Position numbers and translations under genes: made by a program
Shown here: positions 1 to 35,735 of the stretch, in pieces
How positions within the stretch are numbered: the stretch's first letter is position 1
Layout of the letters: each line of letters opens with the position of its first letter
Notes under the pieces: generated by a model
What the model was told of the DNA's origin: nothing
The model's database searches: none
What the model saw: only the letters and a program-made list of their open reading frames with translations
Source: an uncultured Candidatus Saccharibacteria bacterium
GTDB taxonomy: Bacteria > Patescibacteriota > Minisyncoccia > CAYRSW01
Length of the DNA stretch: 36,271 nucleotides
Direction: 5' to 3'
Assembly (NCBI GenBank): GCA_964427335.1
Contig: CAYRSW010000003.1
Span: forward strand, 4,902-41,172

Positions 1-2
1 TG

Positions 3-3000
3 TCGGGCGACCCAACGGCCGACGCTAATGCTACTGGTGTTTGTCCCGGCTCTGAACCAACAGCCGTTCAAGATGGCGGCTGGTTAGTATCCGGGAATGC
101 CGGTGGTGATTGGACTAACACTATTGGCGGCCATGTTTACCAGTCGGACTGCTCAATAGAGATTGGGGATGCTTTAGTTTTTGCTGAAGGAACCGGCTTT
201 TCGACTATAAGCAGCGTTACTGATGGCAGCTTTACTTTAAGCGGACTTTATCCGGGAACTTATAATTTGGTTGCCGTGGCGGCCGGTTATGATGATCAGA
301 TGATGAACGGTGTGGAGTATGGAGCTACTTGGCCGCAATTCTGCCTTTATACTGGCAGCGGCGGAGGAGGAGGAGGAGATACGGATAAACCCTACGTTAT
401 CTGGTCAGCCCCGAATGAGGGAATGATGGGTGCGCCGGTTGACATATCGCTTACGGCAGCGCCAATTACGATTGGTTTTAACAAGCCCTTGGATTCAACC
501 ACCATTAATACAAACTCTGTAAAGCTTAATTATTGGGACGGCTCTTCTGAACAAGCCGTTACTGTTGCGGTAAGCTATTCAGATACTGATTACACGATTA
601 CTATTTCTTCTAATACTAATCTTTCTTTTGGCAAAGATTATATGGCCGTGATTACTCCGGCCGTAAAAGATACGGCTGGCAATTCTGTCCAAGGCAATAA
701 TCCTATAGGAGGCCATCAAGTTTGGTTTAATACCGGATTTAATATGGGCAGCGGCTCAGAAACCTTCTCCACGGGAGGAGGAGCTATGCCGCCTTTTGTC
801 GTCGGCGCTATTCCTCGGATGAATATCAGCGATGTAGCCATAAATTCAAAAATATTTGTTGCATTTACTACATCTCTGGATTCCGCTTCTGTTTCGGCTA
901 CTACTATCCAGCTTTGGAAGCTGAATTCTTCTATGATTGAAGTAAGCCAAGATACTAGCGCTACGGTTACCCTTGAGCCAAATGAAAAAGAAATAGCCAT
1001 TATCACTCCTTCGGCAAATATGACTTCTAATACCTCTTATAGAATAAAAGTAAAGGGTAATGTTCGCTCAACCACCGGAATGTATTTGGAAATGCCGGAA
1101 GCTTCCGGTTTTCCAAATACGATGTTTATCTCAGAATTTAAGACCACAGAGGCAACTAGCGCGGACAGCACCGGGCCAACAGTGCAGGGAAATTCCCTTG
1201 ATATGTATAATGATGGTACTAATGTAGTCGGGGTTCCGGTAAGCTTAGGCAGTATTGAGATTTTCTTTTCAGAAGCTCTTGGCCCGACTACAGTAAATAA
1301 CACTACTATTTACTTAAAAGCCGGCACTTCCGATGTTTCCGGCACAGCCGAATACGACCCAATGGATAAAGTGGCTCGCTTCTTTCCTTCTTCAGCACTG
1401 GTTCCTTACACTACTTATACTTTAACCTATACTGCTGGTATTAAAGATGCTACATTCCCGGGCAATGCTCTTACTGCCGGCACTTATAGCTTTACTACCG
1501 GAGCGGCTGACACAACTGGCCCAGAAGTGATGTTTGCTTCAGCTGATGACTTCAGAATTGCTATTACCTTTTCCGAGCCAATGAATTCTACAACACCGGG
1601 TCAGCCCCAGTATACTAACTCGGTGCTTAATAAAGATAATTACGCTATTGCCTATTGGGGGACGGGTGATTCTAGCTGGCAGACTGCCACAGCCGGGGAA
1701 ATAGCTAATATAACGGTTGTGTATGATGCAGCCGAAAATACGGCTGAAATTCAAGGATTTGATTCTTATGCTCACCGGGGACATAAGTTTAAAGTGACGG
1801 TGACCGGCGTTAAAGACCGTTCAGGCAATGCTATTACCGAAAATGGCACAGTTAATGTTGGTCAAGGTATTATTCAGGATTCTGCCATGACCGGCGGAAT
1901 GATGGGGCCGGGAGGCGGTGGTATGATGGGGCCAACCGGCGGCGGCATGGACTTTATGAGTTTTGGTATGAAGCCCTGCGGCGCCTGGCCAATGAATATG
2001 ATGGAGGGAATGACTTCTCAATACATGGTTGACCTGCCTCTTTCAGTGGCTCTGGCAAACGGCGACCAGGTGCTTTTAACTTTCCCGGCTGGATTTGGTG
2101 TAGCCAATGCAGCAGCTGTGTCAGCCGCTGATAGTTTTATGAATGCTGATCTTAATGAGTTTGGTCCGGGCACAGTAACTATTAGTGGTGTTAGCAGCAC
2201 CGGCCAGACCGTTATTGTTACAATAGCGGCGACCGCACCTATTCCGGCTGATGATTTCCTGCACTTTGAGTTAAAGGGCATTAAGAATGGCCAGTCTCAA
2301 GGCACAGACACAATGAACTCTAATGGTTATTCAGTAACAATTAAGACCAAGCGTCCATCAACCGGGGCAATATTGGAAAGCTTTAGCACCATGCCTTTCT
2401 TCTTAACGCCCGGTGGAAATCTCTCTTTGTCCGGGCAAGTGTTATCCGGTGTCACTGGAATTAATGGAGTGACGGTTTTCTTGGGCTCGCCGATGACCGG
2501 GCCAATGGAGGCAACTTCGGCTGCTAACGCGGCTGGTGGAGGAAAAGCTGGTGAATATATCTTTTCCAGTCTTCCTTCCGGAGAGTATTTTCTCTTTACC
2601 AAACCATTTATGACCGTTAGCAGCACAGATTATCTTGGTGACCCAATGCCTAAAGGTATTTATGTAAGCTCAAATACTACTCAAAATATTACCATTAAAG
2701 ATCCAAGCACAGCGGCAGTTACCAATGTTACCGTTAAACTTAAAGGTAATTTTGGCACAGATGCCATAGATATTATGGCTGGGAGCGGGACGATGATGGG
2801 TGAAGGCGGCTTTGCAGTAAAACCGGGAATCAGCCCGGGTAATTGTACCGATTATGGTGTTGGCACTAACTGTACCCATACCCTTTATCTGCCAACCCAA
2901 TCCGAATCAACCTGGCACGTCGGTATTGGACCGGCTATGCCGATGGGACCAATGCAGATGGGTCCCATGCCGTCCATTGACTGGATACCGCCGGTTGAGC

Positions 3001-6000
3001 AGGATGTTTATATTGATTCCGGCGGGGTTGCCGCTCCAAGTTCACTTAACATTGGCATTACTACGGCCGACGAGAAAATTATTGGTTATGTTTATGATGG
3101 TAGGGCGGATGGTACTACTGATTTAGGCACCAGCAATGACTATGGTTTGCCGGTGAAAGATGTTGATATTGACGCTCATAGAAGAGAGGGCTTTGGTATG
3201 CCGGCTCACACCAGAACCGACGAGAGCGGCAAGTTTACTCTATCGGTGACTACCGGCACCTACTTCTTGAATGTTTGGTTTCCGGGTATGCCGCCGGCAC
3301 CGGAAAAGAAAGTTAGAATAGATGATAATGGAAGTTTGGTTGACGGCAATAGTTATTCTGATGTTTATACTGAAGGAATTCCGGTAACCACAGCAGCACC
3401 TCTGGTCTTTAAGCTGGGTAAAAGCGGTTATACTATTTCTGGAAATGTTTCTGACGGCACCAACCCGGTTGCTTACGCGCCGGTCTGGGCTTTCAACGAA
3501 ACTACCGGCTTTCATATTCCCGGCGGCACCGATTCGTCGGGCAGCTTCACCTTATATGTTCCTGCCGGCACCTGGAAAGTCCAGGCAAATATTTCGGGCA
3601 AAGGAGATACACCGCCGGAGACAGTGATTATTCCTACTTCTGAAAGTGATGGCTCTAAGAGAAATCTTTCACTTCAGTCCCTGACAAATGCGGCAACGAT
3701 TACCGGAACAGTCACAGTGACTGGCAGTGCCCAGGGCTGGGCTCATGTTTGGATTACCGGGACTGATTCTAATGGAGATTACTTTGAAAACGGGACACCG
3801 ACCAGAGGAGATGGAACCTATAGCTTGACTGCCCCGGCCGGCACCGGCTATGTGCTTTACTGCTTTATTCCAGACTATGGAGAGCAAGCGCCGATTAATA
3901 TCGGGACACTGACAGCTAGTCAATCTGTGACTGGCAGGAATTTTACTATAACTAGCGTTTCAGTAGCCACTCTTACTTTTGTCTTTAATAATTCAAGCAA
4001 CCTTTCCGGCAAGGAGGCCTGGGTTGATGTGTTTAACCAGACTACCGGAATGGGGCAAGGCCAGCATATTAACGATGTCAATGATATTCAGGCCTACGAA
4101 ACTCTTAAAGTGGTAGCTGGTGATTATAACATTCGCGCTCATATACCCGGATTTGGTGAGTATCAGCCAACTTCACCAACGCCGACGGCTGGGGTGGTAA
4201 CTCTTCCTACTGGGGCTACTACGGTGACCTTTAATTTACCGACTACCACCTATACTGTTTCTGGATTGGTTTATATTGATACTAACAGCAACAGTGTTTA
4301 CGATGTTGGCACTGATACGCTTATTACTGAAGGATTTGTTTGGCTGGAAAACTGGGAGAATGGTTATCACGCCGGCAGCGACATAGCCGGAGACGGCACT
4401 TATTCTGTGTACGTTCCGGGCGGAACCGGCAGGAACTTTTATCTCGGAGCCGATGTTCCGGGATATACCGCGCCGGCGCCCCAAAAGATTTCGGGCTTAA
4501 CCGGTGATCTTTCCGGCCAGAATATCGCCGTTATTGCCAATGACCGAACTATTTCCGGAAGGATTGTTAACTCATCCGGCGACGGCATTGGTTATTCTTG
4601 GGTTTGGGCAGAAAAAGTTGATTCGGCTCACGCCAGCAATCCAACTCTTGGTACCTTCTCAGGGCATACCCATACTGAAGCAGACCAGGATGGTTATTAC
4701 ACGCTTTCGGCCAGTTCCGGTTATTGGTGGCTTCATGCGGCCGGTCCCGGCTATCAAGAGACCTTTGAGACTACGGCTCGCGACTTAGTTGCTAATACCT
4801 CTATTACCGGAGCTAACCTGACAGTTAATGCTTTAGTTAGTTATACGGCTAAACCGCCTAAGATAAAAAATGTTAAACCATCCGAAGGTGGAGTGGTTGA
4901 TGATACAAACAACACCGGTGTTAAAATTACCATTCCGGCTACGGCTTTAGGCGACAGCACCGACTATGCAAAAGTAACCGTTACTGAAAAATCCGGCGGC
5001 GGAACTGATGCCAAGGCAACGCTGGGTAATACCTACTACGAGGTTAAAGCTACAGATAGTTCAGGTTCTGCTATCAGCGGTCAGTTGAATGAACCGCTTG
5101 AAGTAGAAATTCATTATAACGAGAGCGATTTACCGACTGGTTTTGATGAGTCGCAGATTACCTTTAATTCTATGGGTGAGAGCGGCGGCTGGCAGGAAGA
5201 TATGTTTACGGTTGATACTGACGCAAATATTATTCGGGTAAAGCTTAGTCATCTTTCCTCTGTAGCCACCACTTATCCATCTGACGCCGACAGACCAACT
5301 ACGCCCGGCAAGCCAAGCGTTAGCGGCGGCGCGAGCAGTATATCCCTTTCCTGGACTGCTTCTACTGATAATGTAGCCGTGGCCGGTTATGAGGTTTATC
5401 GAAGTACAACTTCCTCCGGGACATTCGCTAATATCAGCGGCGACTGTGAAGCAACTGGCAGTTTTGACTCTTCAGCGCTAGTTACTACTATAACCTATAC
5501 AGATTCCACGGCTGTTTCCGGCACTACTTATTATTACAAAGTTTCTGCTTATGATACTTCTGGTAATGCTTCGGCTGCTTCTTCTATTGTTTCTTCTGGT
5601 GTAAGACTAGGCGGCGGCAGTGGCGGCGGAGGAGTAGTCAGCGGCGGCGCAGCAGTAACTACTATTCCAGAGACCTCTACTGGAAATGTGACCGCCAACC
5701 CAACCAGAGGCGGTATTACTAGGGTAATTAATACTGACAACAGCAAGATTGAAATAACTCTGCCATCACAAGCGATTACATCAAATGCTGATTTGGTTAT
5801 TAGTAAAGTAGTTAAAGCCACAATCATTGTTGAAAGACCAGCGCCGGCTAATAAGTCCGTGGTTGGCGACTACGTTTACTCTCTAGCAGCCACTTATTCT
5901 GCAGTGGGCACTGCAGTTGCTAGTTTCGCAAAAAATGTCACCGTTAAATTCGCTTATACTGATGCGCAGGTTGCCGGGTTCAATGAGGCGAGCCTCGTTA

Positions 6001-6530
6001 TTTATCGCTGGGATGGTTCTGCTTGGCTTGGCCTAACCACAACGGTTAATACGGCTAATAACACGGCTGCGGCTGAAACTTCTCAATTCTCTTACTTTGC
6101 TTTGATGGGCGGGGAAGAAGGAGCTTTAGTTGACGGTGATGTAATAAGAAATCCCGATGCCGAAGGTATGGCTCAATTTGATGTCTATATTGCAAAGATT
6201 GTTGGCACAAAGTTATTTAAGCGGTTAATTTTGAGCCCTCATATTTTTGAAAGTTACGGTCACCTGGAGTGGTCAAATATCAAGCTGGTTGATACTGCTG
6301 CTATGGATAGCTACACTACCTCTAATTTAGTCAGGGCTTGGGATCCTACTGCTGACCTTGATGACCCCAAAGTTTATAAGCTAACTCCAGATGGCGACAC
6401 CGGCACCAAACAGTGGCTGAACATGACCGCCGCAGAGTTTGTCTTGGCTGGCTATGATTGGGATTCTATCTATATCATCAACAAAGTAGACAGAGACGCC
6501 TATACCACTGGCACTCCAATTACGCCGTAG
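3..6530 (+). CDS. Giant secreted/cell-surface mosaic protein, 5'-partial (continues beyond the left window edge)
   Basis: The frame is open from nt 3 to the TAG at 6528-6530. The listed start at 267 is an internal TTG, and the in-frame upstream peptide (..DGSFTLSGLYPGTYNLVAVAAGYDD) is itself a carboxypeptidase-regulatory-like repeat. By eye there are 4 SbsA/Big_5-type Ig-like modules (..NLSFGKDYMAVITPAVKDTAGNSV; ..SYRIKVKGNVRSTTG; ..YTLTYTAGIKDATFPGNAL; ..KFKVTVTGVKDRSGNAI). There are 8 beta-sandwich repeats of the G-x-[YF]-x-L..G-x-Y type (GKFTLSVTTGTYFLNV, GSFTLYVPAGTWKVQA, GTYSLTAPAGTGYVLY, GYYTLSASSGYWWLHA etc.). There is one Fn3 domain (SLSWTASTDNVAVAGYEVYRS..YYYKVSAYDTSGNAS, about nt 5295-5600), a Gly-rich linker and a C-terminal tandem module. 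No TM segment, LPXTG or lipobox is visible. Confidence 0.85.
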   Translation, partial: SGDPTADANATGVCPGSEPTAVQDGGWLVSGNAGGDWTNTIGGHVYQSDCSIEIGDALVFAEGTGFSTISSVTDGSFTLSGLYPGTYNLVAVAAGYDDQMMNGVEYGATWPQFCLYTGSGGGGGGDTDKPYVIWSAPNEGMMGAPVDISLTAAPITIGFNKPLDSTTINTNSVKLNYWDGSSEQAVTVAVSYSDTDYTITISSNTNLSFGKDYMAVITPAVKDTAGNSVQGNNPIGGHQVWFNTGFNMGSGSETFSTGGGAMPPFVVGAIPRMNISDVAINSKIFVAFTTSLDSASVSATTIQLWKLNSSMIEVSQDTSATVTLEPNEKEIAIITPSANMTSNTSYRIKVKGNVRSTTGMYLEMPEASGFPNTMFISEFKTTEATSADSTGPTVQGNSLDMYNDGTNVVGVPVSLGSIEIFFSEALGPTTVNNTTIYLKAGTSDVSGTAEYDPMDKVARFFPSSALVPYTTYTLTYTAGIKDATFPGNALTAGTYSFTTGAADTTGPEVMFASADDFRIAITFSEPMNSTTPGQPQYTNSVLNKDNYAIAYWGTGDSSWQTATAGEIANITVVYDAAENTAEIQGFDSYAHRGHKFKVTVTGVKDRSGNAITENGTVNVGQGIIQDSAMTGGMMGPGGGGMMGPTGGGMDFMSFGMKPCGAWPMNMMEGMTSQYMVDLPLSVALANGDQVLLTFPAGFGVANAAAVSAADSFMNADLNEFGPGTVTISGVSSTGQTVIVTIAATAPIPADDFLHFELKGIKNGQSQGTDTMNSNGYSVTIKTKRPSTGAILESFSTMPFFLTPGGNLSLSGQVLSGVTGINGVTVFLGSPMTGPMEATSAANAAGGGKAGEYIFSSLPSGEYFLFTKPFMTVSSTDYLGDPMPKGIYVSSNTTQNITIKDPSTAAVTNVTVKLKGNFGTDAIDIMAGSGTMMGEGGFAVKPGISPGNCTDYGVGTNCTHTLYLPTQSESTWHVGIGPAMPMGPMQMGPMPSIDWIPPVEQDVYIDSGGVAAPSSLNIGITTADEKIIGYVYDGRADGTTDLGTSNDYGLPVKDVDIDAHRREGFGMPAHTRTDESGKFTLSVTTGTYFLNVWFPGMPPAPEKKVRIDDNGSLVDGNSYSDVYTEGIPVTTAAPLVFKLGKSGYTISGNVSDGTNPVAYAPVWAFNETTGFHIPGGTDSSGSFTLYVPAGTWKVQANISGKGDTPPETVIIPTSESDGSKRNLSLQSLTNAATITGTVTVTGSAQGWAHVWITGTDSNGDYFENGTPTRGDGTYSLTAPAGTGYVLYCFIPDYGEQAPINIGTLTASQSVTGRNFTITSVSVATLTFVFNNSSNLSGKEAWVDVFNQTTGMGQGQHINDVNDIQAYETLKVVAGDYNIRAHIPGFGEYQPTSPTPTAGVVTLPTGATTVTFNLPTTTYTVSGLVYIDTNSNSVYDVGTDTLITEGFVWLENWENGYHAGSDIAGDGTYSVYVPGGTGRNFYLGADVPGYTAPAPQKISGLTGDLSGQNIAVIANDRTISGRIVNSSGDGIGYSWVWAEKVDSAHASNPTLGTFSGHTHTEADQDGYYTLSASSGYWWLHAAGPGYQETFETTARDLVANTSITGANLTVNALVSYTAKPPKIKNVKPSEGGVVDDTNNTGVKITIPATALGDSTDYAKVTVTEKSGGGTDAKATLGNTYYEVKATDSSGSAISGQLNEPLEVEIHYNESDLPTGFDESQITFNSMGESGGWQEDMFTVDTDANIIRVKLSHLSSVATTYPSDADRPTTPGKPSVSGGASSISLSWTASTDNVAVAGYEVYRSTTSSGTFANISGDCEATGSFDSSALVTTITYTDSTAVSGTTYYYKVSAYDTSGNASAASSIVSSGVRLGGGSGGGGVVSGGAAVTTIPETSTGNVTANPTRGGITRVINTDNSKIEITLPSQAITSNADLVISKVVKATIIVERPAPANKSVVGDYVYSLAATYSAVGTAVASFAKNVTVKFAYTDAQVAGFNEASLVIYRWDGSAWLGLTTTVNTANNTAAAETSQFSYFALMGGEEGALVDGDVIRNPDAEGMAQFDVYIAKIVGTKLFKRLILSPHIFESYGHLEWSNIKLVDTAAMDSYTTSNLVRAWDPTADLDDPKVYKLTPDGDTGTKQWLNMTAAEFVLAGYDWDSIYIINKVDRDAYTTGTPITP

Positions 6531-6579
6531 TGTTACCGATTTACGCTGATTAATAGCTGATTTTCACTGATTTTTAAAA

Positions 6580-6623
6580 GCCCTCGTCCCGCAGTACTGC
6601 GGGACGAGGGCTTTTTATTTTTT
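6580..6623 (+). terminator. Rho-independent terminator after the giant gene
   Basis: GC-rich hairpin GCCCTCGTCCCGCAG / CTGCGGGACGAGGGC (6580-6594 pairs with 6597-6611, about 13-14 bp usable stem), followed by TTTTTATTTTTT (6612-6623). Confidence 0.85.
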
Positions 6624-6641
6624 CATTTCGTCTATATTCTT

Positions 6642-6679
6642 GTCAAGCTTAGCTTGACTTAAGTAAGCTAAGCTTACTT
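6642..6679. promoter_or_regulatory. Two adjacent palindromes (candidate operator pair) upstream of and overlapping the holB promoter
   Basis: GTCAAGC-TTA-GCTTGAC (6642-6658) and AAGTAAGCT-A-AGCTTACTT (6661-6679). Both share the core AAGCTnAGCTT. Their centres (6650 and 6670) are 20 nt apart. The second abuts the predicted -35. Confidence 0.45.
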
Positions 6680-6706
6680 GTCAAAAATAAGCTCGGATGA
6701 TAGAAT
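6678..6706 (+). promoter_or_regulatory. Sigma-70-like promoter for holB (TTGTCA-N17-TAGAAT, with TGa extended -10)
   Basis: TTGTCA at 6678-6683, a 17-nt spacer, and TGATAGAAT at 6698-6706. The ATG at 6713 lies 6 nt after the -10 and has no SD, which implies a leaderless mRNA. Confidence 0.55.
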
Positions 6707-6712
6707 AATGAT

Positions 6713-7675
6713 ATGAGTGAGGTAAAAAAAAGGACCAACTGGAACATTATAGGTCACGAGAAACAGGTAAATTTTTTTCAAAAAAGTATCCGAAAGAATC
6801 GTCTTTCGCATGCTTATTTGTTTATTGGTCCTCAAGGAGTAGGGAAGACGACCTTAGCTTTAGCTTTTGCTAAGGCACTCGAGTGTGAGGATGGAAAAGA
6901 TGAAGATTTTTGCGGCCATTGTCGATCTTGCTTGGCAATTGAAAAAGGAAATCATCCCGACGTTCATTTAATAAGTCCCGAGAGCGAGAAAGAAGAAATC
7001 AGTATTGCTCAAATAAGAAAGTTGCGTCGAGATTTTACTCTTTCTGCTTTAAGCGGTTTATATAAAATTGGGGTTATTCAAGGGGCAGACCTTTTGGGCA
7101 GAGCGGCGGCTAATGCATTTTTAAAAACCTTGGAAGAACCCTTGGGTAAAACTATTTTTATTCTGACTAGTTCCTCCGAGTCCATTCTTCCAACCATTAG
7201 TTCACGCTGTCAGATTTTAAAATTTCCCGGCTTAAGTATAGTTGAGATAGAAGAAGAGCTTAAAAGACGGGGGGTTGTTCAGGCGAAAAGACTAGCCAGG
7301 GTAAGCCAGGGAAGGCCGGGGCTGGCTTTGAATATTATTAAAAACCCCGAAATTTTAGAGACCCAAGAAAATTTAATAAAAGATTTAATTTCAATTTTAG
7401 CATCCGATAATAATTATCGTTTTAAATACGTTGAAAATCTCGCTCAAGATAAACTTAAAATAAAAGAAACTCTTTCTTGTTGGACGACCTTTTTTAGAGA
7501 CATATTAATAAAGGGCTATATCGGGTTTGACGAGACTTCTGAAGTTCCACAAGTCAAGATTTCCAAAGAGAAAGCATTGACTGCTATCAAAAAACTTAGG
7601 AAAACTTACGATATTATTTTTAGCACTAATGTAAATCCCAGATTAGCGCTAGAAGTAATGATGCTAAATTTGTAA
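6713..7675 (+). CDS. holB: DNA polymerase III delta-prime subunit
   Basis: 320 aa. Motifs: HAYLFIGPQGVGKTT (P-loop-like), AANAFLKTLEEP, TISSRCQILKF (SRC motif). Size and motif order are typical of HolB. Confidence 0.78.
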   Translation: MSEVKKRTNWNIIGHEKQVNFFQKSIRKNRLSHAYLFIGPQGVGKTTLALAFAKALECEDGKDEDFCGHCRSCLAIEKGNHPDVHLISPESEKEEISIAQIRKLRRDFTLSALSGLYKIGVIQGADLLGRAAANAFLKTLEEPLGKTIFILTSSSESILPTISSRCQILKFPGLSIVEIEEELKRRGVVQAKRLARVSQGRPGLALNIIKNPEILETQENLIKDLISILASDNNYRFKYVENLAQDKLKIKETLSCWTTFFRDILIKGYIGFDETSEVPQVKISKEKALTAIKKLRKTYDIIFSTNVNPRLALEVMMLNL

Positions 7676-9309: not shown

Positions 9310-10389
9310 ATGTTACTAACTATTATTGTTTTTTTATTAATCCTTGGACTTCTCATTTTTGTCCATGAGCTTGGTCATTTTATTATGGCCAAACGTGCCG
9401 GGGCAAAAATAGAAGAGTTTGGTTTTGGTTTTCCGCCGCGAATTTTTGGCAAAAAAATAGGGGAAACCATTTACTCTTTAAACCTTATCCCTTTGGGGGG
9501 ATTTGTTAGAATTCTTGGAGAGTCAGGAGAAGAAAGAAAGAACCCGCGGAGCTTTGCCAATAAATCAACCTTCCAGCGTTTTAAAATTCTCATTGCCGGA
9601 GTATCAATGAATCTAATGCTAGCCGCGGTGCTCTTGAGTATTGGTTTTTTTTGTGGACTTCCAACAATTATAGATAGCGACCAAGGAAAAGCTCGCGAGG
9701 TAAAGATTCAAATTTTAAGTGTGTCCCCAAATTCTCCGGCTCAAGCGGCCGGAATAAAAATTGGAGACGAGATAAGAGAATTCCAAATTCCAAATTCCAA
9801 ATTTCAAATTAGTGAGGTGGAAGAGGTGCAGGAGTTGACTAAGGAATATGCTGGTCAGGAGATTATTCTTGAGATTAAAAGAGGAAGTGAAATTTTGAAC
9901 GTTTCGCTTGTTCCTCGAAAAAATCCTCCGGAAGCCGAAGGAGCAATGGGGGTAGCCCTGGCTAAGACGGCAATAGTTAGTTATCCCTGGTACAAATCTA
10001 TCTGGTTGGGAATTGTTACCACTTTTAATCTAACTCTTACTTTTATTTTTGCTTTTGCGAGAATCTTAAAAGATCTTATTTTTGGCAGAGTTTTAACCGC
10101 TGAAATATCTGGCCCGGTCGGTATTGCTGTGCTTACTTCTCAAGCAGCAAAACTCGGATTTATTTATGTTTTACAACTTACCGCTCTTATTTCTATAAAC
10201 CTGGCTATTATTAACGCTTTTCCATTTCCTGCTTTAGATGGGGGCAGAATCTTGTTTTTGGTTATTGAGAAAATAAAAGGCAGTCCGGTCAGTCAAAGAA
10301 TAGAGAGAGCAATTCATACCGCCGGATTTGTATTTCTGATAGGGCTGATAATTTTAATTACCTTTAAGGATGTAAAAAAACTGTTTTAA
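9310..10389 (+). CDS. rseP: RIP metalloprotease RseP (M50 site-2 protease with PDZ domain)
   Basis: HELGHF (HExxH) lies in the first TM segment. A central PDZ is present (PAQAAGIKIGDEI), as is the NLAIINAFPFPALDGGR motif. Polytopic membrane profile. Confidence 0.85.
   Translation: MLLTIIVFLLILGLLIFVHELGHFIMAKRAGAKIEEFGFGFPPRIFGKKIGETIYSLNLIPLGGFVRILGESGEERKNPRSFANKSTFQRFKILIAGVSMNLMLAAVLLSIGFFCGLPTIIDSDQGKAREVKIQILSVSPNSPAQAAGIKIGDEIREFQIPNSKFQISEVEEVQELTKEYAGQEIILEIKRGSEILNVSLVPRKNPPEAEGAMGVALAKTAIVSYPWYKSIWLGIVTTFNLTLTFIFAFARILKDLIFGRVLTAEISGPVGIAVLTSQAAKLGFIYVLQLTALISINLAIINAFPFPALDGGRILFLVIEKIKGSPVSQRIERAIHTAGFVFLIGLIILITFKDVKKLF
9779..9811. repeat. Heptanucleotide tandem array inside rseP: AATTCCA x3, AATTTCA x1, partial AATTA
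   Basis: Direct reading of gaATTCCAAATTCCAAATTCCAAATTTCAAATTag. It encodes EFQIPNSKFQIS in the PDZ region. Confidence 0.9.
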
Positions 10390-18548: not shown

Positions 18549-20372
18549 ATGAAGACAAAATTTTTGCGGTTAGTAATGATTGCTTTAGTGAGTATGGGGT
18601 TTATCTTGATAGGCCCGGGTTTAGTCAGAGCCGAAGAGGTAGAGCCGCCTGAAATAGTTCTGCCTTCGGATGAAGTTTTAAGGACAGAGCCTCAAGTATT
18701 AAGAAACGCGTCCACCAGTGATCCAAAAACGTTTAACCTTGTACTTGCAAATGAGACCAGTAGTACGGATGTTTTGAGTCCTTTATTTGAATCGCTGGTT
18801 CGGATGAACCCGATCACTTTGAACTATGATGACGAAGAGTATTCTGGGGTTTTAGCTGTCGGCTGGGAAGTTGACGAGACAGGAAGAATCTGGACTTTCC
18901 ATTTGAGAGAGGGAGTAAAGTGGAACGATGGAGAACCTTTTACTGCCGAAGATGTTGTCTTTACCCTCAAGGTAATTTATGATCCGGATATTCCCAACAG
19001 CACGAAAGATATCTTGAGTTTCGGGAAGGATAAAAAACAGATTACTTGCGAAAAGATAGATGACCATACTGTAAAATTTACCACCCCCGAACCATTTGCT
19101 CCATTTCTCCATAATGTCGGAGGAATGTCAATATTACCCAAGCATATCTTGAATAAGCCATGGGAAGAGAAAGACGAAGAGTTAAGTCCTGGTCAAAGAT
19201 TTAACCAGATGTGGACGATTGGTACTAAAGTTAACGAAATTGTCGGAACTGGACCATATGTGATAACGGAATATATACCAACCCAGCATATAAAATTCGG
19301 ACCGAATCCTTATTATTGGCGCAGAGACGAGAAGGGAAGACGCCTTCCCTACATAGAAAGAATTGAGACGATTATTGTTGAAAACCTGGAAACAATTAGT
19401 CTTAAATTCAAGGCTCATGAGATTGATACTTTAGGACTCCGTCCTAAAGATGTTGCTTTGCTGGGAGAGGAAATAAGAAAGCAAGAAGAAAAGGGGGAGA
19501 TGCCCGATAAAGTTCTACTGGAAGTCGGATTGAGTACTGGCACGACCTTTGTCGCTTTTAACCAAAATCCTAGACATTACATAAAAGATGGGAAAGTGGA
19601 CCCTAGACTGAATTGGTTTTCCGATCCTCAATTTATGAAAGCTATTGCTATGAGCATTGACTATGAGACCATAATTCAGAATGTTCTTTACGGATTAGGC
19701 GTGTCGACCTCTACTGTAATATCTCCTGTAGTTCGTACTTTTCACCACGACGGACTCGAAGCTTACAAATATAATCTAGATAAAGCTAGACAAATTCTTG
19801 ATCAAGCCGGATATAAAGTGGATGACAAAGGAGTAAGGCGAGATAAAAACGGAAATAAGATCAAATTCACTTTAATCACCAACAGTGGAAATGATACTAG
19901 AGAAAGTATCTCCAATATTCTAGTGGCGGATTGGACTGAAGAGCTAGGATTTGAAGTTCATTACCAACCTCTGGAATTCAATACGTTGGTTAAAAAATTA
20001 TTAGATAATTTCGATTGGGACGCGGTCGTAATCGGCTTGACTGGTGGTGTAGAACCCCACGGCGGAGCAAATGTGTACAAGTCATCTGGACAGTTGCATT
20101 TTTGGAATCCCGAGCAGGAGAGTCCAACTACAGAGTGGGAAAAAGAAGTGGATGCACTAGTTGATAGGGGAGCGAAAGAGCTGGACCTAGAGAAACGGAT
20201 TGAGATTTATAAGAGAATGCAAGAAATATTCTACCGACGGCTTTCCTATATTATGCTCCCTGTGCAAAAGATTTTTATCGCTCACCATAATAAGCTGAAG
20301 AACTATCGCCCGTTAACATTTGGGACTTATAAATCCGAGTACCGGTATATAGATACTAGGAAGAGTAAATAG
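18549..20372 (+). CDS. Peptide/nickel ABC transporter substrate-binding protein (family 5, OppA/DppA-like)
   Basis: 607 aa with SD GGAGGAG at 18539-18545 and an N-terminal signal/anchor (LVMIALVSMGFILIGPGLVRA). There is no lipobox Cys. VKWNDGEPFTAEDVVFT and the overall size are typical of SBP_bac_5. It is followed by permease and ATPase genes. Confidence 0.8.
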   Translation: MKTKFLRLVMIALVSMGFILIGPGLVRAEEVEPPEIVLPSDEVLRTEPQVLRNASTSDPKTFNLVLANETSSTDVLSPLFESLVRMNPITLNYDDEEYSGVLAVGWEVDETGRIWTFHLREGVKWNDGEPFTAEDVVFTLKVIYDPDIPNSTKDILSFGKDKKQITCEKIDDHTVKFTTPEPFAPFLHNVGGMSILPKHILNKPWEEKDEELSPGQRFNQMWTIGTKVNEIVGTGPYVITEYIPTQHIKFGPNPYYWRRDEKGRRLPYIERIETIIVENLETISLKFKAHEIDTLGLRPKDVALLGEEIRKQEEKGEMPDKVLLEVGLSTGTTFVAFNQNPRHYIKDGKVDPRLNWFSDPQFMKAIAMSIDYETIIQNVLYGLGVSTSTVISPVVRTFHHDGLEAYKYNLDKARQILDQAGYKVDDKGVRRDKNGNKIKFTLITNSGNDTRESISNILVADWTEELGFEVHYQPLEFNTLVKKLLDNFDWDAVVIGLTGGVEPHGGANVYKSSGQLHFWNPEQESPTTEWEKEVDALVDRGAKELDLEKRIEIYKRMQEIFYRRLSYIMLPVQKIFIAHHNKLKNYRPLTFGTYKSEYRYIDTRKSK

Positions 20373-20382
20373 TTAAAAAACT

Positions 20383-20414
20383 AGCTGGAAGGAATAAATT
20401 TCCCTCCAGCTTTT
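20383..20414 (+). terminator. Rho-independent terminator after the binding-protein gene
   Basis: AGCTGGAAGGA (20383-20393) pairs with TCCCTCCAGCT (20401-20411) with one mismatch, followed by TTT/TTTTAAAA. Confidence 0.65.
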
Positions 20415-20421
20415 AAAATAC

Positions 20422-20450
20422 TTGACTAAATTAAACTTATATGATAGTAT
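20422..20450 (+). promoter_or_regulatory. Promoter for the permease/ATPase genes (TTGACT-N17-TAGTAT, with TGa extended -10)
   Basis: TTGACT at 20422-20427, a 17-nt spacer, and TGATAGTAT at 20442-20450. Confidence 0.5.
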
Positions 20451-20499
20451 AAAAAGTCAGAACCTTGACAAAATAATATCATGATTTTACGGAGGTAAT

Positions 20500-21492
20500 G
20501 TGATGAATTCGATGATGCGCTACATCATTAAGAGACTTCTTTGGATTCCGGTAGTTTTGTTTTGTATATCTGTTTTGAGTTTCATGATTTATCAGTTGGC
20601 TCCTGGGGACTATTTTTCAAAATTAGCGATGAATCCCCAAATTTCTCCCTCGACTTTAGAGCAGATGAGAATTCAATGGGGATTAGATAAACCAGTATAT
20701 GTTCAATACTTTCTATGGCTCTGGCAGGTTCTTCATGGGAACTTGGGTACCAGTATCGCTTATAACACCAGTGTTACCAGCCTTATTCTTTCCAGGGCTT
20801 TTAGCACGATGATTTTAAGTGTTAACTCGATGGTTTTTACCTGGAGTTTAGCTATCCCAATAGGAATTGTTGTTGCGCTAAGGCCGAATACTTTTTTAGA
20901 TAGAAGTTTGTCGCTGGCTGCCTTTATCGGCATGAGCATTCCTAACTTCTTTTTGGCCTTTTTGTTGTTGTACTTGGCTCTCAAGACAGGATGGTTTCCT
21001 ATTGGCGGGACTTTTTCCCTTGCCTACAGCTCTCTTCCCTGGTGGGGAAAAATTGCAGATAGGTCCCGTCATTTAATCATCCCAACAATTGTTCTTGGAA
21101 CGGCTGGTATGGCTGGCCTGATGCGGTTAATGAGAGCGCAAATGATGGAGATAAAAAGCGCCGATTTTGTAATCGCGTGCAGAGCCAAAGGACTTTCCGA
21201 AAGGAAAGTGGTCCTTAAGCATATGTTAAGAAATGTTTTGAATCCCTTTATCACATCGATGGGATATTTATTCTCTGCGCTTCTTAGCGGGGCGGCGCTG
21301 ACTGAAATGGTTTTGGGTCTTCAGGGATTGGGACAGTTAATGCTTAAGGCAGTTTTATCACAGGATTGGCCTCTGGTTATGGGTGTACTACCCGTTAACT
21401 CTGTACTGCTTCTTTCAGGAATTCTTGTAGCGGATATTCTATTGACTATCGTTGACCCTAGAATAAGCTTTGAGTCCTTGAGGAGAAGATAA
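20500..21492 (+). CDS. Peptide ABC transporter permease (OppB/DppB-like)
   Basis: SD GGAGG at 20491-20495. The start is either GTG 20500 or, more likely, ATG 20503. It has six-TM character and an EAA-type loop (ACRAKGLSERKVVLKHMLRNVLNP). Confidence 0.85.
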   Translation: MMNSMMRYIIKRLLWIPVVLFCISVLSFMIYQLAPGDYFSKLAMNPQISPSTLEQMRIQWGLDKPVYVQYFLWLWQVLHGNLGTSIAYNTSVTSLILSRAFSTMILSVNSMVFTWSLAIPIGIVVALRPNTFLDRSLSLAAFIGMSIPNFFLAFLLLYLALKTGWFPIGGTFSLAYSSLPWWGKIADRSRHLIIPTIVLGTAGMAGLMRLMRAQMMEIKSADFVIACRAKGLSERKVVLKHMLRNVLNPFITSMGYLFSALLSGAALTEMVLGLQGLGQLMLKAVLSQDWPLVMGVLPVNSVLLLSGILVADILLTIVDPRISFESLRRR

Positions 21493-28600: not shown

Positions 28601-28623
28601 TTCCCGAGGCTTAGCCTCGGGAA
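28601..28623. repeat. 10-bp hairpin immediately 3' of the tRNA (copy 1 of a related pair)
   Basis: TTCCCGAGGC-TTA-GCCTCGGGAA, with T-run upstream and A-run downstream, so it is not a canonical terminator on either strand. Confidence 0.7.
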
Positions 28624-32750: not shown

Positions 32751-33902
32751 ATGAAAAAAAGTCAAGAGTTTTTAAGAACTTGGGTTGAGATTAGTAAAAG
32801 TGCTCTTATCCATAACATAGGGCAATTTAAGAAATTGATTAAGCCGCGGGTGAAGCTTATGGCGGTGGTTAAAGCCAATGCTTATGGTCATGGATTAGTA
32901 AAGACTTCAAAAATTGCCGCAAAGGCTGGGGCTAATTGGTTAGGAGTTGACTCAATAGATGAAGCCCTAGATTTAAGAAAGGCGAAGGTTAAGACGCCGA
33001 TTTTAGTTTTAGGTTATGTGCCGCAGTCTCGGTTGGGGGAGGTGATAACTAATAACATTAAGCTTACTTGTTATAATCTTGAGACTATAGAAATATTAGG
33101 AAAACTTGCTCCAAAACTTGAAAAAGTTGCCCATATCCATCTGAAAATAGAGACTGGGACTAATCGGCAAGGAGTAGAGCCGGAGGCGATTCCCGAGTTT
33201 ATTAAGCTTATCAATGAGTATCCATTTGTTAGGTTAGAAGGAATTTCTACTCATTTTGCTAATGCCGAAATCCCAAGTTCTTCTTTTACAAAAGGACAAC
33301 TGGTTAAATTTAGGCAAGCAATTAAAATTTTCCAAAATTATAAAATTAATATTCCCGTTAAACATACAGCCTGCACCGCAGCCGTTATTGCTTTTGAAGA
33401 AACTCTCTTTGACATGGTTAGAGTTGGTATTGGTTTATATGGTCTTTGGCCGTCTATAGCAATCAAAAATTTAGTTAGTAAGAAGAAAAACATCAAATTC
33501 CAGCTAAAACCTGTGCTTAGCTGGAAAACAAAAGTAGCTCAAGTGAAATTTTTAAAGAAGGATTCTCCAATTGGATACGGATGTCAGGAATCAGTAGTTC
33601 GTGATTCAAAAATAGCTGTTTTACCGGTGGGATACGCCGATGGTTACGACCGCAAATTTTCCAGTATTGGTAATGTATTAATAAAGGGCAAGCGAGCAAA
33701 AGTTCTGGGGCGCGTTTGTATGAATATGACGATGGTGGATGTAACGAATATAAAGGATGTTGGGCTTGAAGAAGAGGTTGTGCTCTTGGGCAGACAAGGC
33801 AGTGAAGAAATTAGTGCTCAAGATTTAGCAGGAAAACTGGAAACAATAAATTATGAAGTAGTCTCAAGGATAAATCCGTTAGTGCCAAGAATTTATGTCT
33901 AA
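32751..33902 (+). CDS. alr: Alanine racemase
   Basis: PLP-lysine motif AVVKANAYGHG, plus ..GYADGY.. and NYEVVSRI near the C-terminus. An upstream TGGTAAAAT (32733-32741) extended -10 lies 9 nt before the ATG. Confidence 0.9.
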   Translation: MKKSQEFLRTWVEISKSALIHNIGQFKKLIKPRVKLMAVVKANAYGHGLVKTSKIAAKAGANWLGVDSIDEALDLRKAKVKTPILVLGYVPQSRLGEVITNNIKLTCYNLETIEILGKLAPKLEKVAHIHLKIETGTNRQGVEPEAIPEFIKLINEYPFVRLEGISTHFANAEIPSSSFTKGQLVKFRQAIKIFQNYKINIPVKHTACTAAVIAFEETLFDMVRVGIGLYGLWPSIAIKNLVSKKKNIKFQLKPVLSWKTKVAQVKFLKKDSPIGYGCQESVVRDSKIAVLPVGYADGYDRKFSSIGNVLIKGKRAKVLGRVCMNMTMVDVTNIKDVGLEEEVVLLGRQGSEEISAQDLAGKLETINYEVVSRINPLVPRIYV

Positions 33903-34908
33903 AAAACTCAAAATTGCGGTTTTAATGGGTGGGGTGTCTAGTGAAAGAGATATTTCTTTGGCTACCGGAAGAAACGTAGTCTCTTTTTTAGATAAGAAAA
34001 AATATGAAGTTTTTGCTATCGAAGTAAAAGATAAAGTAAGCTGGATTTCTAAAGTTAGAAACAAAAAGCCCGATTTAGTTTTTATAGGGCTACATGGAAA
34101 GTTTGGGGAGGATGGCGAAGTCCAGGGCGTATTGGACGATTTGGGAATTCTCTATACTGGTTCTGGTGAGCTTGCTTCGATGCTGGCGATGGATAAACTT
34201 ATCACTAAACAGATTTTTAAAGCCAAGAATATTTTCACACCCTCCTATGTGGTTATTGACCAGCAGCAATATTATTTTGAAGGGCAAGGGTCAGTAAAGA
34301 GGATTCTCTCTCAACTGAAGTTACCTTTAGTTATAAAACCATCTGCTTCTGGTTCTAGCATTGGGGTTACTATTGTTAAAGATAAGAAAGATATAAAGGG
34401 GGCTCTTAAGGCGGCTTTCAAAGAGGGCAAACAGGTGCTTATTGAGAAATATATTTTTGGCACAGAAATAACTGTGCCGGTTTTAGGCAATAAAAATCCC
34501 AAAGCACTGCCTGTGATTGAGATAGCTCTCAAGAGAGATTTTTTTGACTTTAAAGCAAAATATAATCCTAAATTATGTGATGAAATTGTTCCGGCAAGGA
34601 TTTCTCGTAAATTAACCAGAAAAGCTCAAGATTTAGCCTTAAAAGTCTATCAAGCTTTTGGTTGCCGCGGTTTTGCACGCGTAGACATGATAGTAGAAAA
34701 ATCCGAAATCCCTGCCCGCCAATCGGCTGGAGCCTCAAGGCGACTGGCAGGCGGGCGAAATCCGAAATCCGAAATATACGTCCTGGAGATTAATACTATT
34801 CCGGGCTTAACTGAAAATAGTTTGGTGCCTAAGTCAGCTAAGGCAGCTGGAATGGAATTTCCTCAACTTTTAGATAAAATTATCAATTATGCATATGAGA
34901 AGGTATAG
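33895..34908 (+). CDS. ddl: D-alanine--D-alanine ligase carrying a 22-aa in-frame insertion
   Basis: GGVSSERDISL, GLHGKFGEDGEVQG, KPSASGSSIGV, ARVDMIV..YVLEINTIPGLTENSLVP. The insertion is described in the findings. Confidence 0.9.
   Translation: MSKKLKIAVLMGGVSSERDISLATGRNVVSFLDKKKYEVFAIEVKDKVSWISKVRNKKPDLVFIGLHGKFGEDGEVQGVLDDLGILYTGSGELASMLAMDKLITKQIFKAKNIFTPSYVVIDQQQYYFEGQGSVKRILSQLKLPLVIKPSASGSSIGVTIVKDKKDIKGALKAAFKEGKQVLIEKYIFGTEITVPVLGNKNPKALPVIEIALKRDFFDFKAKYNPKLCDEIVPARISRKLTRKAQDLALKVYQAFGCRGFARVDMIVEKSEIPARQSAGASRRLAGGRNPKSEIYVLEINTIPGLTENSLVPKSAKAAGMEFPQLLDKIINYAYEKV
34699..34775. repeat. GC-rich palindromic core (34712-34757) flanked by the 13-nt direct repeat AAATCCGAAATCC, inside ddl
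   Basis: Direct repeats at 34699-34711 and 34758-34770. The core is CTGCCCGCCAATCGGCTGGAGCCTCAAGGCGACTGGCAGGCGGGCG, with GCCCGCC/GGCGGGC termini. The flanks are GAAATCC heptamer arrays. Confidence 0.85.
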
Positions 34909-35701
34909 GAAGAGAAAAGCAAAAAAGATATTAATTTCGGTTCTTATCCTTTTTTTATTTAGCGGGATTTTTTATTTTTTATTTTTTTCGCAAGTTTTTA
35001 AGATTAATAATTTTATAATATCCGGAGGACGCTCTTTAGTTCCCGAAGAGGTAGAAGAAACTCTTAGGTCTTTTCTGAATCGTCGCTGGTTTCTGATTCC
35101 GGCCAACAATTTTTTTATTCTTAAAGAAGGGGAACTAGAAAAAGCAATCCTTGATAAATTTAAAAGAATAGAAGGGGTAGATATTCAAAAAGGATTTCCC
35201 AACGCCCTAGAGGTAGAAATAAAAGAAAAAAACTTAAATCTTATTTGGTGCCAGAAAAAACAAGAAGAAAGGAAGTGCTTTTACTTGGATCAAGATGGAA
35301 TGGTTTTTGGTAAAGCTTTTGATATTGACCTAGAAAATCTGGACAGAGAAAAACTCATCAATGGCCCATTTATTTTAGTGGAGGAAGAGAGAGAAAGCTT
35401 TAGTTCTTTGGAAGAAAAAATTGCCGTCTCTGAACTAGTTGATTTTATTTTTCAAATAAAATTAATCCTGCCCAAAATAGCAGGATTAAAAATGGTAAAA
35501 GGCAGTATCGGTTTGGCTTCAGCTGGCCAGATTAATGTAGAAACCGAAGAGGGATGGCAAGTTTATTTTGATACAACTCGAGAACTTACCAGCCAAGTTA
35601 AAATTTTAGACTTGGTTCTAACAGAGAAGATTACTAAAGAAGAAAGAGAAAGCTTAGAGTATATAGATTTGAGGGTGCCGGGAAGGATATATTATAAGTA
35701 A
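34889..35701 (+). CDS. ftsQ: Cell division protein FtsQ/DivIB (POTRA domain)
   Basis: Basic N-terminus, a single TM segment (ILISVLILFLFSGIFYFLFF), then a POTRA-like segment (FKINNFIISGGRSLVPEEVEE). Positioned after ddl. The start is ATG 34889 or 34895. Confidence 0.65.
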   Translation: MHMRRYRKRKAKKILISVLILFLFSGIFYFLFFSQVFKINNFIISGGRSLVPEEVEETLRSFLNRRWFLIPANNFFILKEGELEKAILDKFKRIEGVDIQKGFPNALEVEIKEKNLNLIWCQKKQEERKCFYLDQDGMVFGKAFDIDLENLDREKLINGPFILVEEERESFSSLEEKIAVSELVDFIFQIKLILPKIAGLKMVKGSIGLASAGQINVETEEGWQVYFDTTRELTSQVKILDLVLTEKITKEERESLEYIDLRVPGRIYYK

Positions 35702-35735
35702 ATTTCTAATTTCTAATTTCTAATTTCTAATTCCC
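35701..35735. repeat. Heptanucleotide tandem array AATTTCT x4 plus AATTCCC
   Basis: Perfect copies at 35701, 35708, 35715 and 35722, with a variant at 35729. The array starts on the last base of the ftsQ stop and contains the stop codon (35727-35729) of the convergent gene. Confidence 0.9.

Follow-up and report, generated by a model that had tools for sequence, protein, structure and literature searches.

A GC-rich hairpin carried in frame within ddl of a Saccharibacteria genome belongs to a dispersed family of small, probably selfish palindromic elements

The DNA analysed here is a stretch of 36,271 nucleotides (the window) from an uncultured Candidatus Saccharibacteria bacterium (contig CAYRSW010000003.1 of assembly GCA_964427335.1, positions 4,902 to 41,172). 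On its forward strand, at 33895-34908, lies ddl, the gene for D-alanine--D-alanine ligase, which contains the GC-rich hairpin element described below. The gene was recognised from the list of open reading frames (ORFs; 337 aa) and from Pfam and PDB matches. Both Dala_Dala_lig_N and Dala_Dala_lig_C were detected in the product, and its best PDB match was a Ddl (E = 2e-63). The columns that are invariant among 15 aligned Ddl sequences are intact on either side of the insert, including D264, E298 and N300, which we take, from E. coli DdlB, to be the catalytic Asp and the E-x-N residues. The gene carries 66 additional in-frame nucleotides, made up of a 45-nt hairpin and 21 nt of GAAATCC heptamers, which are missing from its closest insert-free orthologues.

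The site (34698-34777) reads AAAATCC GAAATCC [45-nt core] GAAATCC GAAATCC GAAATAT, all features being given on the forward strand. The left part of the heptamer array (34698-34711) was delimited from the sequence, a pattern search and comparison with the arrays of two related loci, L003 and L001. The hairpin itself occupies 34711-34755 or, equally, 34712-34756, as established by three independent comparisons, and encodes residues 273-287 (PARQSAGASRRLAGG). It is composed of a 5' arm CCTGCCCGCCA (34711-34721), a loop ATCGGCTGGAGCCTCAAGGCGAC (34722-34744) and a 3' arm TGGCAGGCGGG (34745-34755). The right part of the array (34756-34777) consists of a junction C followed by GAAATCC GAAATCC GAAATAT; Tandem Repeats Finder reported it at 34756-34775 with period 7, 2.9 copies and 100% match. 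The G+C content of the core reaches 74% (46-nt window) versus 40% for the whole window and 39% for ddl. The folding energy of the core was -28.1 kcal/mol as RNA (z = -2.45), and -13.0 and -11.3 kcal/mol for the two strands as DNA. No second copy was found in the window when up to 2 substitutions per arm were permitted. The complement of CCCTGCCC, at 34711-34718 in the 5' arm, is the octamer GGGCAGGG, the E. coli FtsK-orienting (KOPS) sequence; given the YGCC periodicity, this is probably a coincidence.

A sequence-only reading of this DNA had proposed a GC-rich palindromic insert in ddl, and the sequence at 34699-34777 is in good agreement with its description. The 13-nt repeat AAATCCGAAATCC was located at 34699-34711 and 34758-34770, with a spacing of 59 nt, and the frame is indeed kept through one further heptamer after the second repeat, giving 66 additional nucleotides. 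Although this 13-nt direct repeat exists, it is better seen as part of a tandem heptamer array. Two values needed correction: the blocks RVDMIV and YVLEINTIPG are separated by 27 residues, not 26, and the element measures 45 nt, not 46. Both termini, GCCCGCC (34714-34720) and GGCGGGC (34750-34756), were confirmed. A hairpin register shifted to this perfect 7-bp pairing was considered and rejected, since it requires the 3' arm to be followed by a C, a base that is unconserved in the family.

At the protein level, the enlarged loop EKSEIPARQSAGASRRLAGGRNPKSEI (34699-34779) lies between two beta-strands and is 22 aa longer than in insert-free orthologues, as seen in the protein alignment and in an AlphaFold model. 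Solved Ddl structures have 3-4 residues where the window Ddl has about 24-26. The model had a mean predicted local distance difference test score (pLDDT) of 80 and a predicted TM-score of 0.81. Residues 273-290 scored below 50 and are placed between strands 261-268 and 294-300; therefore, the insert makes a hairpin turn longer, and no structure is predicted for it. The expected location in a loop between two strands was thus borne out, with low model confidence for the loop, while its exposure at the protein surface is presumed from this placement.

In a protein search, only six relatives exceeded 70% identity, and their DNA was compared at the ddl site. Three of them (L004, L005 and L006) have an empty site (…AAAAAATCAAAAATATAC…) with 0 additional nt. 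These close orthologues are 22 codons shorter precisely at the position of the insert. L003 carries five heptamers (AACATCC x3, AACATCT, AGCATCT), amounting to 21 additional nt, and the core is absent. In L001 the arrangement is AACATCC AACATCC [42-nt core] AACATCC AACATCT AACATCT, with 63 additional nt. L002 contains a different hairpin (…GAGGCTAAGCCTC…CCCGAGGCTTAGCCTCGGG…) and 33 additional nt, and the window allele, with its heptamers and 45-nt core, 66. In every ddl allele compared the additional length is divisible by three. The insert is therefore optional among orthologues of a presumably essential gene, in which it is carried in frame, as had been proposed. The element has opposite orientations at this same site in the window and in L001, because the two apparent arm types are mutual reverse complements; the T/C arm swaps between both alleles had been considered as compensatory changes, an explanation rejected since they represent the same element reversed. 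The same site architecture is seen in L001, which stems from an independent Joint Genome Institute (JGI) assembly.

The neighbour-joining tree of ddl DNA was (((L001,L002),window),L004), with L003, L005 and L006 outside, and therefore the insert states do not track descent. The 60 nt directly upstream of the insert are mosaic: L001 equals L003 at 51/60 positions and L002 at only 42/60, the reverse of its gene-wide ddl identities (78% with L003, 89% with L002). This suggests allele exchange by recombination, a process that may have spread filled sites between ddl alleles. Cultured Saccharibacteria are reported to be naturally competent (PMC10187176). The occurrence of three independent events in one ddl loop within a small clade fits either a hot spot (an A-rich slippery tract) or strong filtering of insertions to a few tolerant loops.

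The different insert of L002 touches a second hairpin family, CCCGAGGCT(T/A)AGCCTCGGG. An identical 19-mer is found at 28603-28621 of the window, where it forms a terminator-like hairpin directly after tRNA-Pro, and at 1299-1317 of L002, where it is part of the in-frame ddl insert. A close variant of this hairpin is intergenic in L006 (4625-4645). L001 also has, at 560-800, an additional GC-rich, palindrome-laden segment of ~190 nt between genes for a peptide-binding protein and a permease, which contains GGCAGGCG and GGCGGG motifs and is missing from the window (20372-20500). It may be another small mobile element.

The distribution of the ddl hairpin was evaluated in two scans. Species-representative genomes were searched with TCCCYGCCYGCCA-N(10-40)-TGGCRGGCRGGC, four arm positions being left free as Y or R, and at least 119 loci were obtained, versus roughly 1-2 expected by chance (a rough estimate that assumes equal base frequencies). 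The matches are concentrated in Patescibacteria: of the 80 that had titles, about 40% bore labels of the Candidate Phyla Radiation (CPR). Labels among the matches comprised Gottesman-, Curtiss-, Doudna-, Davies-, Roizman-, Woese-, Moran-, Uhr-, Komeili-, Nomura- and Magasanikbacteria and Saccharibacteria; other matches were in Bacteroidota, Lewinellaceae (contigs of 0.5-0.9 Mb), Desulfobacteraceae, Ignavibacteria and metagenome-assembled genomes labelled Gammaproteobacteria. Several genomes gave 2-3 matches each. A metagenome scan free of flanking bases (GCCCGCCA-N(10-40)-TGGCAGGCGGG) returned at least 120 loci, of which the matches in high-GC loci resemble chance. The locus L103 was left out of the counts as a likely fold-back assembly artefact. 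The family was absent from viral contigs (0 matches), and no full-length match was found in cultured plasmids and phages; the idea of a phage or plasmid as vector therefore lacks support. The window hairpin had no Rfam match at E up to 10, and none was obtained at the gathering score in 15 loci with varied copies. Literature searches by arm sequence and by keyword (palindromic or in-frame repeats of CPR or Patescibacteria) retrieved no description of the family, which agrees with the earlier statement that no such element had been described for CPR genomes.

These copies define a family of dispersed GC-rich imperfect palindromes of 33-54 nt, with arms CCTGCCCGCCA and TGGCAGGCGGG and a loop usually of 10-23 nt. 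The 11-nt arms form 9 Watson-Crick pairs plus one T.G and one C.A. In the first scan, with its four free arm positions, both non-Watson-Crick positions were kept in 81 of 100 distinct copies and only 4 of 100 were fully paired, so that the family must be an inherited asymmetric sequence and not a convergent hairpin. Loop lengths cluster at 11, 14, 17, 20 and 23 nt and show another peak at 19 nt; CAGGCG(A/C) commonly ends the loop, adjoining the 3' arm.

The boundaries of the element are precise. In the flank-free matches, chance matches included, positions -3 to -1 were C, C and T in 93, 83 and 84 of 116, and the matches without CCT were mostly in high-GC loci; therefore, the unit is CCTGCCCGCCA...TGGCAGGCGGG. 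Positions -4 (A 38, G 37, C 32, T 9) and +1 were unconserved. Accordingly sharp limits were seen in individual comparisons: empty L003 and filled L001 differ by exactly the element, and a copy in frame in a TsaB-like gene (L158) has a single mismatch in 45 nt with the window element, the similarity stopping exactly at CCT...GGG. The loop of L179 is identical to that of L001. In L197 (2322-2363) the 23-nt loop of the window (34722-34744) occurs exactly reverse-complemented with the arm orientation unchanged. This flip/flop arrangement is a hint of inversion or of copying through a hairpin. L115 (7463-7561) holds a 33-nt form three times head to tail, and L142, L168 and L198 hold composite forms with a duplicated 5' arm; thus, the element also exists in tandem or nested form. 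Between genes, many copies are nested within other hairpins.

Part of the family resides inside genes. Open frames of at least 750 nt contained 46 of 127 copies in the genome set, and long open frames 16 of 74 in the unbiased metagenome set, that is, 22-36% across both. In the genome set, a length that is a multiple of three was found for 42/46 copies in ORFs of at least 750 nt versus 19/44 copies without a frame of at least 300 nt (Fisher p = 1e-6). The independent metagenome set, evaluated in the same way, showed 13/16 versus 17/39 (Fisher p = 0.016). This bias is the signature of selection for read-through translation, and implies that insertion normally adds only the element. The orientation relative to the coding strand was unbiased (21 versus 25 in the genome set, 10 versus 6 in the metagenome set), and the in-gene copies of the genome set use all six orientation-frame combinations, with differing peptides. 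Hosts confirmed by Pfam were RNase J, GatB, LysRS, MurF, YchF, IF-2 and TsaB; CysRS, LeuRS, PurL, CCA-adding enzyme, SHMT, G6PDH and RluD were recognised only from reading the translations. The YchF copy in L117, judged by eye, lengthens the protein by about the 13 residues that its 39 nt encode. The idea that the ddl core is foreign, palindromic and repeated elsewhere was supported. Other short GC-rich peptide repeats also recur in host proteins, such as SLGEGQGGV three times in a LeuRS ORF (L081), SRLRGNDNG (L061) and PLPQGEG / SPGEGRV (L024), which suggests that additional palindrome families have inserted in frame in genes of the CPR.

The flanking heptamers had been taken as a target-site duplication, an interpretation that did not hold. 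The five-heptamer array of L003 exists without the core and differs from filled L001 by a clean 42-nt element, so the core brings no duplication. Most family copies have no flanking direct repeat: none of at least 3 nt was seen in 45/71 unbiased copies, and one of at least 5 nt in 15% of flank-unbiased copies versus 2.4% of controls. A 7-nt flanking repeat (at least 6/7 identity) was found for 12% of copies versus 1% of controls, period 7 alone being enriched. Finally, no other short tandem repeat is as common in these genomes as the period-7 arrays, be a hairpin nearby or not; 1.1 Mb of low-GC loci contained 10, 61, 22 and 5 arrays of period 6, 7, 8 and 9, respectively. The period-7 arrays mostly have 3-5 copies, and 8 of the 61 had a hairpin within 35 nt versus about 1 expected by a rough estimate, a ~7-fold excess. 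Repeated insertion and excision with a 7-bp target-site duplication in ddl was also rejected, since each intermediate shifts the frame and L003 and L001 differ by the element alone. Two other heptamer arrays are present in the window: AATTCCA (9779-9810, 4.6 copies), in frame in an RseP-like gene (peptide EFQIPNSKFQIS), and AATTTCT (35701-35732, 4.6 copies), between an ftsQ-like stop codon and a convergent gene, whose orthologous site in L001 has 3.4 copies. Heptamer repeats are reported to be over-represented in bacteria, mostly with about four units in Xanthomonas, and to stem from slippage of the polymerase (PMC4692102). In an essential gene the frame is kept only by steps of three units, which fits the +21 nt observed in ddl.

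A search for a mobilising gene was carried out by all-against-all clustering of 1,665 ORFs located within 3 kb of copies. The clusters obtained were all of housekeeping families, apart from a small one of Y1 transposases. Four Y1-like genes were within 3 kb of copies; the one in L077 matches PF01797, and those of L077 and L022 are flanked by other palindromes. No transposase bounded by the arms was found among the fetched loci of 8-14 kb or by the clustering of nearby ORFs. Paired copies that bracket a gene were also considered and discarded: those in L046 flank a gene for a large secreted protein and not a transposase, and in L103 (6480-7230) several hundred bases fold back perfectly on a central palindrome, most likely through an error of assembly. 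The Y1 (IS200-like) transposase genes of L077 (1860-2570) and L022 (1760-2560) are each bracketed by their own inverted palindromes, AGGGGTTTAACCCCT and ACACCTTAGAGGTGT, respectively, and these units look like REP/RAYT-style units (REP, repetitive extragenic palindrome) in CPR or related genomes. In L134 (154-732, reverse strand) a Y1-transposase-like ORF, which has HUH and Y motifs and gave no Pfam match at 1e-5, contains a hairpin copy in frame close to its C-terminus. Elsewhere in the window, positions 1-7300, most of which are one ORF of 2087 aa (267-6530), are distinctly richer in G+C than the remainder, with many 46-nt windows at 63% or above.

Taken together, the ddl insert is probably a selfish DNA hairpin that inserts with precision and that Ddl tolerates in a disordered, presumably surface-exposed loop. 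In Patescibacteria and a small number of other phyla, the family would behave as mobile DNA of a selfish kind, each copy arriving as an exact CCT-to-GGG unit in either orientation, normally without target-site duplication. In gene-dense genomes most insertions would probably be lost, and the survivors would be those that are intergenic, or that lie in genes with a multiple-of-three length and a peptide in a permissive loop. In the present case, the element would have landed within a pre-existing or co-arising heptamer microsatellite, (GAAATCC) of about 4.7 copies, at the beta-hairpin turn just before the E-x-N motif of Ddl. The ribosome would read through it, leaving a loop that is 22 residues longer and probably disordered in an enzyme that stays functional. 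We infer that the insert is neutral or tolerated and not useful, and that movement takes place at the DNA level, perhaps via single-stranded hairpin DNA or recombination between alleles. Several points weigh against this explanation. The element is present as a single copy in the 36-kb window and in each related locus (2 substitutions per arm permitted), and no transposase or other mobilising enzyme is linked to it. Translation of the insert is deduced from frame statistics. Both scan patterns fix most arm positions, so that divergent copies and any decay fall outside the sample, and the conservation of the arms and two mismatches across phyla could reflect a cellular function.

The last point leads to the alternative that the hairpin is a functional cis-acting signal kept by selection, serving binding or processing by a conserved protein, replication or recombination, or an mRNA structure that tunes ddl/ftsQ expression. 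It would account for the conservation of the arms and both mismatched positions across phyla, for the CAGGCG(A/C) motif beside the 3' arm and for the many intergenic copies nested in other hairpins. It is nevertheless improbable, as the copies face both ways relative to transcription, even at one ddl site, are lacking in the closest orthologues and are scattered over unrelated genes at unrelated positions; moreover, no U-tract follows the hairpin, which was not called a terminator by the scan and has no Rfam match. That the loop is an adaptive extension of Ddl specific to this lineage, under selection as protein and with the palindromic DNA being incidental, would agree with a stop-free, in-frame insert in a loop. 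Orthologues at 81-86% DNA identity have no insert or unrelated sequence there, however, the same DNA gives different peptides in unrelated genes in all six orientation-frame combinations, and the model predicts no structure for the insert, which makes such an origin very unlikely. More extended is the proposal that these hairpins are a cross-phylum mobile element with a new mechanism: precise insertion and excision of single-stranded hairpin DNA without duplication, performed by an unrecognised enzyme or by host replication and repair, with the mismatches marking the strand. They would then be a major source of lineage-specific loops in CPR housekeeping proteins and be linked mechanistically to the formation of heptamer arrays. 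This proposal must be regarded as speculative and rather unlikely in its full form.

The remaining explanations are fainter still. An origin of the whole insert by replication slippage and template switching at the site is most readily applied to the heptamers, for which slippage is the simplest source given how common period-7 arrays are in these loci and their reported over-representation in bacteria attributed to that process (PMC4692102). For the 45-nt core there is no local template, and other genes and genomes hold almost the same sequence; these dispersed copies already refute a local origin for the core, so that this origin, with very little probability for the insert as a whole, stands for the heptamers only. 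The insert might also be removed or bypassed during expression, by RNA excision or by translational bypass with the direct repeats as take-off and landing sites. A stable hairpin flanked by matching direct repeats is indeed found in known bypass elements, namely T4 gene 60 and yeast mitochondrial byps. In ddl, however, the frame is preserved without stop codons, most family copies have no flanking repeats, and the multiple-of-three length of in-gene copies would be needless if the element were skipped, so that bypass appears highly improbable. Nothing specific favours an assembly or chimera artefact other than the fold-back encountered in one fetched locus (L103). The same architecture in the independent JGI assembly (L001), the presence of the family in hundreds of independent assemblies and the in-frame insert in an otherwise intact gene leave it a negligible likelihood. 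All these rivals fit the data less well than a selfish hairpin does. Read as such, the family extends selfish DNA within protein-coding genes, best known in Rickettsia, to the CPR and beyond, and offers a DNA-level explanation for some of the unusual insertions in proteins of the CPR, among them aminoacyl-tRNA synthetases, IF-2, Mur ligases and RNase J. It also gives annotators and structure modellers a recognisable motif. With its sharp boundaries, alleles that have or lack the insert, and a site occupied in two orientations, it represents a tractable system for the study of how a 40-nt hairpin moves.

Among known systems, the Rickettsia palindromic elements (RPEs) are alike in that a palindromic repeat lies in frame in unrelated housekeeping genes and is read through as a peptide compatible with the fold. 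The sequence-only reading had drawn this analogy, which holds functionally, since the present family is also in frame in many other housekeeping genes. RPEs measure about 150 bp, comprise ten families confined to Rickettsia and have a conserved peptide each (PMC10969869). In contrast, the present element has 33-54 nt, three times smaller, is common to several phyla and uses six orientation-frame combinations with no single conserved peptide; it is by size, host range and frame usage, and without direct comparison to RPE consensus sequences, that both are set apart. The ddl-flanking GAAATCC units fit the class of heptameric simple sequence repeats, as the loci studied contain tandem 7-nt units of ~four copies that are over-represented versus neighbouring periods. 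They differ in that the window array sits within an essential gene and that arrays in these loci adjoin the hairpin more often than estimated by chance.

Similarities with REP/REPIN-RAYT systems include short GC-rich imperfect palindromes, conserved mismatches, many copies and no target-site duplication. REPs are by definition extragenic, have a conserved 5' tetranucleotide and are mobilised by RAYT proteins (Y1 HUH transposases), whereas 22-36% of the present copies are in long open frames, and nothing is conserved upstream of the arm. The two Y1 genes inspected near copies are flanked by other palindromes. Palindromes derived from IS200/IS605 have, directly 5' of their left end, a conserved target of 4-5 nt, and their left and right hairpins differ from each other; the present element is a single hairpin with no consensus at -4 or further upstream. 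Miniature inverted-repeat transposable elements (Correia, ERIC, RUP, Nezha and others) share the terminal inverted repeats, the lack of coding capacity and the dispersal. They are usually 100-400 bp long, with a fixed-length target-site duplication and a recognisable parent insertion sequence, while the present element is much smaller, lacks a duplication in most copies, and no parent insertion sequence was seen in the loci of 8-14 kb. Translational bypass elements contain a coding gap that is not frame-constrained, often with a stop codon after the take-off site, unlike this stop-free insert in frame and the multiple-of-three rule of in-gene copies.

The GC clusters of yeast mitochondria, which are GC-rich palindromes of 30-50 nt in an AT-rich genome and include an optional in-frame cluster in var1, come close to the present family. 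Both are optional between strains and sometimes in frame, and both show AT-rich repeated flanks and gene-conversion-like tracts. To our knowledge, no dedicated transposase is known for either. The clusters belong to another domain of life and are unrelated in sequence, so that the analogy is functional only. [quoted passage not shown]

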